Assembly (NCBI GenBank): GCA_951812955.1
Contig: OX638340.1
Coordinates: 64,001 to 128,000 of the forward strand
Direction: 5' to 3'
Origin: an uncultured Gemmatimonadota bacterium
GTDB lineage: Bacteria > JAAXHH01
Length of the DNA stretch: 64,000 bases
Below the pieces are notes generated by a model. It was not told where the DNA came from and searched no databases. It saw only the letters and a list, made by a program, of their open reading frames with translations. The translations under genes and the position numbers were made by a program. Of this stretch, positions 47,253 to 50,216 are shown in pieces (position 1 is the first letter of the stretch; every line of letters starts with the position of its first letter).

Positions 47253-50216
47253 ATGGATTCGACGGAGATTGATGCGACGTGGGTGAGGATTCTTCAGAAA
47301 ACCGCGTACCTCTGCAGCGGGATCGTCATATCGTGCTCCGTGCTCGTACTTATCGGCTGGCAATTAGATATCGCCGAGCTGCGGGGACTGATCAACCCGG
47401 GCCGGGTTCCCATGAACCCGCTCACGGCCGTGGTCTTTTTGCTGGCGGGGTTTACACTGTGCGCCCTGTTGCCGAGAAACGCCCCTTCCCAACGGAGATG
47501 GGCGGGCTTTGCCGGGGCGGGGCTGCTCATGGCCTTCGGCGCCGCCAAGCTCTTCGGACTGGACATCGGCGGCAGGGGCATCGACGAGTGGCTGTTCACG
47601 GCGTCCCTGGGCGGCAGCCGGATGGCCCCACACACCGCCTTTACCTTCATGCTTGTGGGCCTGGCCCTCCTGCTCCTCGACCTGCGCGGCCCAAGACACT
47701 GGCTGTCCCACGTCTGCGTCATGAACGCCGGGATCATCGCCCTCCTTTCTCTGGCCGGCGCGATATACAGCACGATGGTATTATACCGGGTTTCCGGCGT
47801 GATCCCCATCAGCCTGAATACGGCACTGGGCTTCGGCGTGCTGTGCGTCGGCATATTCTGCGCGCGTCCCCGCCGTGAACCGGCGGCCACGCTGGTCAGC
47901 GCAACGGCCGGCGGTATTATGGCCCGCCGCCTGCTGCCCGCGGCCTTCCTCATTCCCATCATCCTGGGCTGGCTCCAGTTCCAGGGAGAAAGAGCGGGAT
48001 TCTATGGGGTGGAGTTCGGCCATTCGATCTTCGTGGTCTGCAACGTGATCGCCTTCAACATCCTGATCTGGTGGAACGCCCGTTCGATCGGTCAGATCGA
48101 CGCGGAACGCACGCGGATCGCCCACGAACTGCATCGCCAAAACGCCCTCCTGGAAAAGACGGCCCACGACATGGTGCTGTTTCAACAGGAACTCCAGGAA
48201 GCCAAGGAGTCGGCCGAGGAAGCCAGCAGGGCCAAAAGCGAGTTTCTCGCCAACATGAGTCACGAGATCCGCACGCCCATCAACGGGATCACCGGCATGA
48301 CCCAATTGATGCTGAACAGCGACCTGTCGCCCAGGCAACGGGAATTCATGCGGTTGATCGATCAGTCCACGGAATCGCTACAGGGCCTGTTAAACGATAT
48401 CCTGGACTTCTCGAAGATCGAGGCGGGCCGACTGGAGCTCGAATCGATCCCCTTCGAATTGCGGGAGCGCATCGCCAATACGGTGCAGGCCATGTCGATC
48501 CCCGCGTCGGAAAAGGGCCTCGAACTGGCCTACCAGGTATCGCCGGACGTCCCCGATCACCTCGTGGGCGACCCGGGCCGTTTGAGCCAGATTGTGATCA
48601 ACCTGGTCGGGAACGCCATCAAGTTCACGGACTCGGGAGAAGTGGTCCTGACCATGGGGCTGGAATCGGAAACGGAAGAAGCCGTGTCGCTGGTCTGCTC
48701 GGTGGCCGACACCGGAATTGGCATCCCGGAGGACAAGCAGCAACTGATCTTCGACGTCTTCAGCCAGGCGGATAGTTCCATGTCTCGGAAATACGGAGGC
48801 ACGGGGTTGGGACTGGCCATCTGCGCGCAGCTGACATCCATGATGGACGGCCGCATATGGGTCGAAAGCGATGTGGAGCGGGGCAGCACGTTTCATTTTA
48901 CCTTCGGCATGAAGAAACAACTCGACGCGGAGAAGAAGGCCGTGTTGGACGCCGAGCCGCTGTCCGGCCTGCGGGTGCTCGTGGTCGACGACCATTCCAC
49001 CAACCGGCGGTTCCTGGTCGACATGCTGACCGAATGGTCCATGAAACCGACGGAAGCCGGCACCGGCGTGGAAACCCTGGCCGCCCTTTCCGGCGATGAT
49101 GGCGATGCCATTCAACTGGTCCTCCTGGACGAAACCATGCCGGAAATGGAGGAATACGGGCTTGTGCGGGAAATCAACCAGTGCGCAGATGGCCGGAGGC
49201 TCGGCGTCATCCTGCTCGTCTCCGCCGGTCAAAGGGAGGATCCGGATAACGGCAAGACTTTCGGAATCGCCTGTACGGTCAGCAAGCCGGTCAAGCAGTC
49301 CGACCTGCTGGACGCCATCATGGATACCGTGGCGGGCACGCGCGAACCCTCAATTGCAAAACACGCCGACGGCGCGGTTGAAGGGCTCGTTCCCCGCCGT
49401 ATCCTCCTGGCCGAGGACGGGATCGTGAACCAGCGCGTCGCGGTGCTCATGCTGGAGTCCAGGGGCCACGCGGTCACCGTGGTGAACAATGGCAGGGAAG
49501 CGGTCGAAGCGTACAAGAACGGGACCTTCGACCTGATCCTGATGGACGTGCAGATGCCCGAGATGGATGGACTGGAAGCGACCCGGACGATTCGCGGCCT
49601 GGAAACCGGAGACGCCCGCACCCCCATCATTGCGATGACGGCCCACGCCATGCGTGGAGATCGAGAGCGGTGCCTTGAAGCCGGGATGGACGAATACCTG
49701 TCGAAACCCATTCAGGCCCAACTGCTCTACTCCGTGGTGGATAACGTTCCGGTTGAGACCAGGGAGGAATCCGGTGATTCCGCTTCCGAGGCGGCACAGG
49801 GTGAGGTCCTGCCTACCGTGGCGGAAGCCGCGCCTTCTGCGCCGCCGGGGGATCCGGCGGCGATCGACTGGGTAAAGGCCGTAGCGCAATTTGACGGAGA
49901 CGAGCAGGTGGCATCGGAACTGGCCGAGCTTTTCCTGACCGAATGCCAGGGGCTTGAAGCCGGTATGCGCGAAGCGCTCGATGCCCGGAATGGCGCCGAC
50001 CTGAGACGGCATGCCCATACATTGAAAGGTTCAGCCGGGATATTCAAGGCACAGGCTGCCGTGTCCGCTGCACAGCGACTTGAAAAGATGGGCAAAGCCG
50101 GGGATTTTACCGGGGCGGAGGAGGCATGGACGGCGCTGGCCGTCGAACTGGACCGGGTGAAGGCGGTCCTCCGGGAACGGGTTGCCGAGGCGAAACAGCA
50201 ATCTGGTCTCGCTTAG
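47253..50216 (+). CDS. Hybrid sensor histidine kinase (membrane sensor, HisKA, HATPase, two REC domains, C-terminal HPt)
   Basis: Multi-TM N-terminus. The H-box is [16 protein letters not shown] and the G-boxes are ADTGIGIP and GGTGLGLAI. Two receiver domains follow ([10 protein letters not shown]...[11 protein letters not shown]; [11 protein letters not shown]...[12 protein letters not shown]), then an HPt motif [11 protein letters not shown]. Confidence 0.85.

Follow-up and report, generated by a model that had tools for sequence, protein, structure and literature searches.

A hybrid histidine kinase encoded beside a receiver-glutamate dehydrogenase fusion: a candidate two-gene phosphorelay module with interchangeable sensors

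Introduction

Is a sensor kinase that is encoded directly beside a metabolic enzyme with a receiver domain of its own the dedicated regulator of that enzyme? The question is raised by a 64,000-nucleotide (nt) stretch of DNA from an uncultured Gemmatimonadota bacterium (contig OX638340.1, positions 64,001 to 128,000; hereafter the window), in which a gene encoding a receiver (REC) domain fused to glutamate dehydrogenase (GDH) is followed by the gene for a hybrid histidine kinase with a membrane-embedded sensor. A preliminary description of the window proposed that the two proteins form a self-contained phosphorelay, whose last acceptor would be the receiver of the fusion, here called REC-GDH. 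The comparative analysis presented here favors this answer: the kinase is likely to be the dedicated phosphodonor of REC-GDH, acting through its C-terminal histidine phosphotransfer (HPt) domain. With somewhat less assurance, but still on the favorable side, the pair can be read as a widespread two-gene module, found in at least 185 species-level genomes with Myxococcota among their phyla, that would tie environmental sensing directly to central metabolism, and in which a relay with interchangeable sensors phosphorylates REC-GDH and switches the enzyme post-translationally. The input in the window would then be a three-repeat membrane sensor from a family that has no model in the domain databases.

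GDH links carbon metabolism to nitrogen metabolism, and its control in bacteria is known to occur through transcription, metabolite allostery, and partner proteins. A His-Asp phosphorelay ending on GDH would, if true, be a different and fast route from a membrane or external signal to the catabolism or assimilation of amino acids. Carriers of the module include marine symbionts, planctomycetes, rhizobia, and roseobacters. Nothing sets the kinase itself apart from standard types; the novelty lies in its conserved wiring to GDH and in the unmodelled family to which its sensor belongs, a family that matters for the annotation of thousands of kinases and diguanylate cyclases. A full-text literature search with incomplete coverage returned no paper on fusions of a receiver to GDH or on their kinases, which is absence of evidence only.

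An Unorthodox Kinase Next to a Receiver-GDH Fusion

The gene upstream of the kinase encodes a genuine receiver-GDH fusion, in which an N-terminal receiver is joined by a short linker to a complete GDH of the hexameric type (aa ~136-548; aa, amino acids). Over its full length, the GDH part aligns with hexameric GDHs of known structure; in a phmmer search of the PDB, the T. maritima enzyme scored best (1b26, E=3.6e-136, aa 136-548). The coordinates of both genes and of their domains are collected in Table 1.

The kinase belongs to the unorthodox, or tripartite, class of hybrid kinases, since HisKA and HATPase_c domains, an internal receiver, and a C-terminal HPt are all present on one polypeptide. 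Response_reg is matched in two separate stretches of the kinase (whole-protein E=1.4e-41), and the domain matches of both the kinase and REC-GDH lie far above chance level. The preliminary description had called the protein a hybrid histidine kinase with two receivers and a terminal HPt, and Pfam recovers exactly these domains (HisKA, HATPase_c, REC1, REC2, and Hpt). The ten-residue HPt motif that it quoted is likewise present, with H922 inside it, and its placement of the gene start 32 nt past REC-GDH on the same strand is accurate: the gap measures 31 nt, and the ATG begins at the 32nd base after the stop codon. A terminator scan of positions 44500..50500 detected no terminator-like hairpin in this gap. 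No further REC, histidine kinase, or HPt genes were detected in the 64-kb window.

The Kinase Accompanies REC-GDH Across Phyla

Fusions with ~70% identity to the REC-GDH of the window occur in Gimesia (Planctomycetota), in Pseudomaricurvus, Pontibacterium, and Amphritea (Gammaproteobacteria), and in Latescibacterota and Gemmatimonadota. For a broader survey, limited to one genome per species, an alignment of the receiver and linker served as the query in order to avoid plain GDHs. REC-GDH was found in 185 species-level genomes, and 80 of these loci were analyzed by calling open reading frames (ORFs) and searching them with the domains of the window kinase. The surveyed genomes are labelled as Latescibacterota/Gemmatimonadota, Planctomycetota, Zixibacteria, Alpha- and Gammaproteobacteria, and Nannocystaceae.

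A member of the kinase family, or its HPt, adjoins REC-GDH in 72 of the 80 loci, mostly across gaps of less than ~100 nt and never more than ~225 nt. In two further loci (L022 and L062) the contig breaks off within such a kinase, so that only its first or last part is present, which brings the number of REC-GDH loci with an adjacent kinase or HPt to 74/80; three others (L035, L056, and L079) are uninformative in that the contig stops at the GDH. When the ORFs of all 80 loci were clustered, the only gene families common across lineages were REC-GDH, present in 80 loci, and the kinase, present in 70, together with their antisense shadow ORFs. The same clustering revealed no DNA-binding or other output gene that travels with the module across lineages. 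All other neighbors, among them hisF and the genes for a poly(A) polymerase-like protein, a YjeF-type protein, and a K+ channel, are confined to the clade of the window (~20-23 loci).

The adjacent kinases of other phyla share the architecture HKcore-REC1-REC2-HPt (HK, histidine kinase), and their identity to the window kinase from HisKA to REC2 (aa 301-835) is 45-62%. Hybrid kinases that lie elsewhere in these loci, by contrast, reach at most 34% identity to the core of the window kinase and lack REC1. By this measure, the kinases adjoining REC-GDH form one family.

What is retained within this family is the REC1-REC2-HPt tail, while the sensors and the gene order (upstream, downstream, or convergent) differ. 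The kinase lies upstream of REC-GDH in Gimesia and the Pirellulales, where it carries a dCache_1-HAMP-PAS sensor and is separated by 3-20 nt, as well as in Sphingobium (CHASE) and Pseudomaricurvus (DUF4154/YfiR-like). It lies downstream in Amphritea (four PAS domains), Ensifer and Zobellella (PAS_7), Ruegeria (CHASE-GAF-PAS), and the larger Latescibacterota genomes (a transmembrane domain plus PAS_3), and also in the window, where the sensor is a transmembrane domain alone. Convergent kinases are found in Halioglobus, again with a DUF4154/YfiR-like sensor, and in Nitrococcus, which has almost no sensor. A constant relay and a constant acceptor combined with interchangeable inputs look like a dedicated signalling pair.

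Split versions of the module are also encountered. In three alphaproteobacterial loci (L069, L073, and L076; Sphingobium and Phenylobacterium) the order is kinase, a separate HPt gene of 117-126 aa, and REC-GDH. In an 8-Mb metagenome-assembled genome (MAG; OZ252228.1, L044) REC-GDH is followed by a 269-aa REC-HPt protein (9625-10434), with no kinase core nearby. Pontibacterium granulatum (L060) has two tandem kinases of the GDH-associated type downstream of REC-GDH (9840-13565 and 13667-16504), the second of which is 51% identical to the core of the window kinase and runs off the locus.

Conservation of the Relay Residues

To assess conservation, 62 complete kinase/GDH pairs were aligned. The autophosphorylation site H337 is conserved in all 59 members that are ungapped at this position, and N454, D486, and G516 of the ATP-binding boxes are kept in 61-62 of 62. 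In REC2, residues E721, D722, D765, T796, and K818 are invariant, and the switch position 815 is Y or F in 62/62. In the HPt, H922 and K925 are invariant across the 62 members, and position 926 is G or S. REC1 has an acceptor set that is nearly as well kept, with D579 in 62/62, D580 in 53/62 (N in 8), and D626, S657, and K678 in 61/62 each. The beta5 switch position of REC1, however, is variable (T/C/H/V/L) and not aromatic in the window kinase, which has T675 there.

On the side of the enzyme, the receiver keeps E12, D13, D58, and K108, and has T/S86 and Y/F105 in all 62 sequences. The last two correspond to the coupled T/S-Y/F pair that is an allosteric hallmark of terminal receivers (PMC9981736). 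The catalytic lysines and dinucleotide-binding glycines of GDH are invariant, which suggests that the activity of the enzyme is itself under selection.

The Proposed Phosphorelay

From these features we infer the following order of transfer. The eight-helix N-terminal domain would sense a signal within the membrane or at its surface and would set the autophosphorylation of H337. The phosphoryl group would then move within the kinase from H337 to D765 of REC2 and on to H922 of the HPt, which would hand it to D58 in the receiver of REC-GDH. The route through REC2 is proposed because this receiver adjoins the HPt and is the more strongly conserved of the two; REC1 most likely tunes the relay, either as a competing acceptor or as a regulatory input. 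Phosphorylation of D58 may then alter the activity or assembly of GDH, in either direction, by way of the T/S86-Y/F105 switch and probably also through a dimerization of receivers that acts on the hexamer. As such a relay would end on an enzyme, its output would be the post-translational control of a central enzyme of nitrogen and carbon metabolism, and not transcription.

The self-contained phosphorelay of the preliminary description finds support in comparative genomics, in that the adjacency of the two genes, their standing as the only genes shared across lineages, the split HPt, and the conserved acceptors all argue for a relay that ends on the receiver of REC-GDH. The module comprises only two genes and is carried by cultured bacteria (Gimesia maris, Ensifer/Sinorhizobium, Ruegeria, Leisingera, Nitrococcus mobilis, Zobellella, and Pontibacterium), and it is therefore directly testable.

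Several points weigh against this proposal. Three loci (L084, L085, and L086) have no kinase or HPt gene within the 2.5-5.5 kb available on either side of REC-GDH, so the receiver can presumably be served from elsewhere, and the phosphodonor of these three, if there is one, must have its gene at another site. The pairing was counted from the side of REC-GDH only, and 74/80 is accordingly a share of REC-GDH loci. The acceptor site of REC1 is complete, which makes the route through REC2 an assumption. Pairwise distances in each part of the kinase (core, REC1, REC2, and HPt) follow those of the GDH receiver, with matrix correlations of r=0.83-0.92, a result that fits co-inheritance but that shared vertical descent alone would also be expected to yield. 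Finally, the quality of an AlphaFold2 (AF2) model of REC-GDH (pLDDT 66.4, with GDH domain I below 50) did not suffice to show how the receiver sits or acts on the enzyme, and the model was not used. As to their origin, the three loci lacking a kinase come from two Planctomycetaceae/Pirellulaceae MAGs and one Latescibacterota MAG.

Alternative Explanations

Of the other ways to read these data, the one that fares best, though still unlikely, is that REC-GDH acts as a sensor of metabolic state or a phosphate sink, and that the real output of the kinase is another response regulator elsewhere in the genome. GDH would then report the status of glutamate, 2-oxoglutarate, or NAD(P)H, and its receiver would drain or return phosphoryl groups through the HPt in a reverse phosphorelay. 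An HPt combined with two receivers would permit such branched or reversible flow, and among unorthodox kinases ArcB and TorS are established examples of transfer in the reverse direction. The full acceptor site of REC1 has no explained role, and the three loci in which REC-GDH occurs without a kinase also agree with this alternative. Against it stand the make-up of the module, which across phyla consists of two genes with no output gene alongside, and the invariance of all GDH catalytic motifs. The GDH receiver, moreover, retains the T/S-Y/F switch typical of terminal receivers (PMC9981736).

A two-component short cut, in which H337 phosphorylates D58 directly and the REC1-REC2-HPt tail serves as an internal regulator, a sink, or a link to other pathways, seems quite improbable. 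Direct His-to-Asp transfer is the default chemistry, and the two receivers of the tail, each with an acceptor site, might be used in either order. However, an HPt with an invariant H922 is found in every complete member of the family, even where it is encoded as a separate gene adjoining REC-GDH, and L044 pairs REC-GDH with a REC-HPt protein only. Hybrid kinases are often orphans, and the pair in the lineage of the window is embedded among housekeeping genes (hisF upstream), but there is very little to be said for adjacency as a product of shared regulation or history alone, with the kinase partnering another regulator and REC-GDH served by other kinases or acetyl phosphate, given that the pairing persists in 74/80 species of several phyla despite rearranged order, swapped sensors, and different flanks, that a separate HPt gene sits between kinase and REC-GDH in three genomes, and that an identity of 45-62% sets these kinases apart from the other hybrid kinases at <=34%. 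A kinase dedicated to REC-GDH through its HPt is the reading adopted in what follows.

The Membrane Sensor Domain

The sensor of the window kinase was modelled with AF2 from 36 homologues (pLDDT 89.5, pTM 0.84) as eight long helices joined by short loops (8-38, 56-72, 79-100, 126-140, 147-172, 188-204, 219-247, and 253-299), the last of which runs on into a coiled coil and the DHp. Long helices and short loops leave no room for a periplasmic domain. Loop lengths and the distribution of Arg and Lys, read by eye and not computed, fit a topology with both termini inside and periplasmic loops of no more than 23 aa.

Searches of Pfam (aa 1-320) and NCBIfam (aa 1-300) returned only noise at E<=10, and no significant fold match was found in the PDB. 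The known membrane sensors MASE1-9, MHYT, 5TMR-LYT, 7TMR-DISM, and HisKA_7TM were considered as identities and rejected, none of them giving a profile match at E<=10.

Internally, the first six helices form three tandem two-helix hairpins. Comparison of their sub-alignments with hhalign indicates that the repeats are homologous (probability 97-98%, E 2e-12 to 8e-11) and that the pair of transmembrane (TM) helices TM7-8 is unrelated to them. An M-x-P/L-x-T-A motif is conserved at the outer, periplasmic start of the second helix of each repeat; its copies in the window are MNPLTA (54-59), MAPHTA (124-129), and ISLNTA (186-191).

Direct homologues of the sensor are fused to HisKA/HATPase, GGDEF, PAS, GAF, and HisKA_3 domains and are labelled as Verrucomicrobiae, Acetobacteraceae, Vulcaniibacterium, Myxococcaceae, Lentisphaerae, and Nevskiaceae. 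Among 1.84 billion cluster representatives, the sensor profile has 13,482 matches at E<=1e-30; at E<=0.001 there are 145,418, a count inflated by HisKA columns in the profile. Pfam finds HisKA in 57 of the best 60 representatives, PAS in 47, GAF in 10, REC in 8, and Hpt in 4, and has no match on the TM part of any of the 60. The sensor is thus a member of a very large membrane family, spread over many phyla, without a Pfam or NCBIfam model or a known relative among solved structures. The preliminary description had called it an unusual multi-TM domain with no periplasmic fold; it is indeed multi-TM, unmodelled, and devoid of a periplasmic domain, but with ~13,000 cluster representatives it is not rare.

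Genomic Context of the Window

In the window, hisF lies on the same strand just upstream of REC-GDH, so that a three-gene transcript is possible. Downstream of the kinase are genes for a K+ channel, an M20 peptidase, and a glutamate-type symporter (Table 1). A functional tie of the module to these neighbors or to hisF was considered and rejected, as they are restricted to the clade of the window (~20-23 loci), which leaves a link to potassium or glutamate homeostasis speculative. An M20 gene also adjoins REC-GDH in L044, but it is only distantly similar, if at all, to the one in the window.

A 460-aa antisense ORF (45872..47254, minus strand) overlaps the GDH gene, and its equivalents cluster in 73 loci. 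This clustering arises because such ORFs mirror the highly conserved coding sequence of GDH, and the ORF is almost certainly not a gene.

Close relatives of the locus are available. The N-terminal query of REC-GDH is 100% identical to OY762445.1 (L011), a MAG chromosome, and the kinase core is 99.6% identical to an ENA contig and 95.7% identical to OY762445.1, values that mark the window as coming from a closely related strain. The nearest labelled relatives are MAGs named Candidatus Latescibacterota or Gemmatimonadota, many of which we presume, from their isolate names, to come from sponge or coral metagenomes.

At the start of the window, positions 1..11400 have a GC content of 0.45-0.56 as against ~0.62 elsewhere, and tmRNA and tRNA-Lys genes follow at the end of this stretch. 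The genes within it give it the look of a defence island, among them adjoining SIR2_2 and HerA/DUF87 genes that resemble a SIR2-HerA pair. This arrangement suggests that a defence-like island was inserted next to ssrA.

Table 1. Features of the window and, in the last three rows, of split loci (locus coordinates).
Feature	Position	Strand	Remarks
DUF6791-ThiF E1-like protein	3614..4831		low-GC stretch
HSDR_N fragment	5090..5629		low-GC stretch
pP_pnuc_1 nuclease	6965..8140		low-GC stretch
HerA/DUF87 ATPase	8224..9915		adjoins SIR2_2
SIR2_2	9912..11072		low-GC stretch
tmRNA	11403..11766	-	at end of low-GC stretch
Two tRNA-Lys genes	11880..12032	-	beside tmRNA
hisF	44772..45551	+	ends 23 nt before REC-GDH
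REC-GDH	45575..47221	+	548 aa; Pfam Response_reg aa 8-116, ELFV_dehydrog_N, ELFV_dehydrog
REC-GDH acceptor D58	45746..45748	+	
Intergenic spacer	47222..47252	+	31 nt, between REC-GDH and kinase
Ribosome-binding site GGGAGG	47241..47246	+	6 nt before kinase ATG
Hybrid (unorthodox) sensor histidine kinase	47253..50216	+	987 aa, start ATG
Membrane-embedded sensor domain	47253..48122	+	aa 1-~290; 8 predicted TM helices, AF2 model
Three tandem two-helix hairpin repeats	47274..47873	+	aa 8-76, 79-145, 147-207; hhalign
HisKA (DHp)	48231..48428	+	aa 327-392; Pfam PF00512, E=1.6e-21
Autophosphorylation site H337	48261..48263	+	SHEIRTP; H-box, conserved
HATPase_c	48567..48908	+	aa 439-552; Pfam PF02518, E=6.2e-28; N, G1 (DTGIGI), G2 (GGTGLGL) boxes
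REC1	48975..49319	+	aa 575-689; Pfam Response_reg, E=1.3e-13 scanned alone
REC1 acceptor D626	49128..49130	+	
REC2	49401..49739	+	aa 717-829; Pfam Response_reg; predicted intermediate receiver
REC2 acceptor D765	49545..49547	+	
HPt	49917..50165	+	aa 889-971; Pfam PF01627, E=2e-13
Predicted phospho-histidine H922 of HPt	50016..50018	+	HAHTLKG
TrkA/RCK-type K+ channel	50326..52020	-	downstream of kinase
M20 peptidase	52560..53930	+	downstream of kinase
Sodium:dicarboxylate (glutamate-type, SDF) symporter	54085..55398	-	downstream of kinase
Separate HPt gene	L069:7609-7986		
Separate HPt gene	L073:7590-7967		
Separate HPt gene	L076:7644-7994		

Comparison with Known Systems

The window kinase resembles BarA/GacS, TorS, ArcB, and EvgS in having HisKA, HATPase_c, REC, and HPt on one polypeptide. 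In those systems a His-Asp-His-Asp relay of four steps ends on a receiver protein encoded separately, and a relay of this type is predicted for the window kinase. It differs from BarA, TorS, ArcB, and EvgS in its extra REC1, its unmodelled 8-TM sensor, and a predicted partner that is an enzyme, GDH, and not a transcription factor. Orthology to any of these kinases, or to RcsC or LuxQ, was rejected, every NCBIfam score falling far under the equivalog cut-off: the best were 520.9 against 890 for BarA, 461.5 against 676.5 for TorS, and 351.6 against 838 for ArcB, followed by 323.8 against 920 for RcsC, 334.3 against 1200 for LuxQ, and 202.7 against 1995 for EvgS.

The order DHp-CA-REC1-REC2 recalls ShkA of the Caulobacter ShkA-ShpA-TacA phosphorelay, which has the domains DHp-CA-Rec1-Rec2 (PMC6969517, PMC7010744), and the relay of ShkA, like the one predicted for the window kinase, reaches its terminal receiver by way of an HPt. 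Positions 4-475 of the ShkA structure (PDB 6qrj, chain A) align as a single stretch with aa 330-825 of the window kinase (E=1e-73). Rec1 of ShkA is a pseudo-receiver; Y338, R324, and R344 bind cyclic di-GMP, and a DDR motif in the Rec1-Rec2 linker serves as a tether (PMC6969517). Control of this kind was considered for REC1 of the window kinase and rejected, in that the position of Y338 is variable (T675 in the window), the linker is without DDR, and the acceptor set is intact (D579, D580, D626, S657, and K678). Furthermore, ShkA is soluble, relies on a separate HPt, and has a transcription factor as its output.

The best solved match is 7p8e (chain A), which aligns with aa 312-829 of the window kinase in two stretches (E=4.7e-85) and is labelled by its depositors as 'Receiver domain of histidine kinase'. 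We take it to be a kinase of the plant cytokinin-receptor type. The likeness is one of architecture only, in that first a receiver-like domain and then a true receiver come after the kinase core; 7p8e has no fused HPt and another sensor, its core identity is ~40-50%, and the alignment in the REC1 region is weak. CHASE sensors do occur on some of the kinases associated with REC-GDH, namely in Ruegeria and Sphingobium.

For the sensor, a parallel in design is MHYT, in which a unit of two TM helices occurs three times and a conserved motif lies close to the outer face of the membrane. The window sensor likewise has three tandem two-helix repeats with a motif at the outer face, and sensors of its type are also fused to kinases, GGDEF, PAS, and GAF domains. 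Its motif is a different one, however, it possesses the additional, unrelated TM7-TM8 pair, and it has no match to Pfam MHYT at E<=10.

The partner of the kinase can be set beside the receiver-enzyme fusions, in which activity is set by phosphorylation of the receiver aspartate: the methylesterase CheB, the diguanylate cyclases PleD and WspR, the HD-GYP protein RpfG, and the PP2C-type RssB/RsbU. Like CheB and PleD, REC-GDH has its receiver N-terminal to an enzyme and keeps the D, T/S, Y/F, and K positions. Ultimately, it is the nature of the output that distinguishes it, since proteins of the CheB/PleD type carry signalling enzymes, whereas the output of REC-GDH is an enzyme of primary metabolism.

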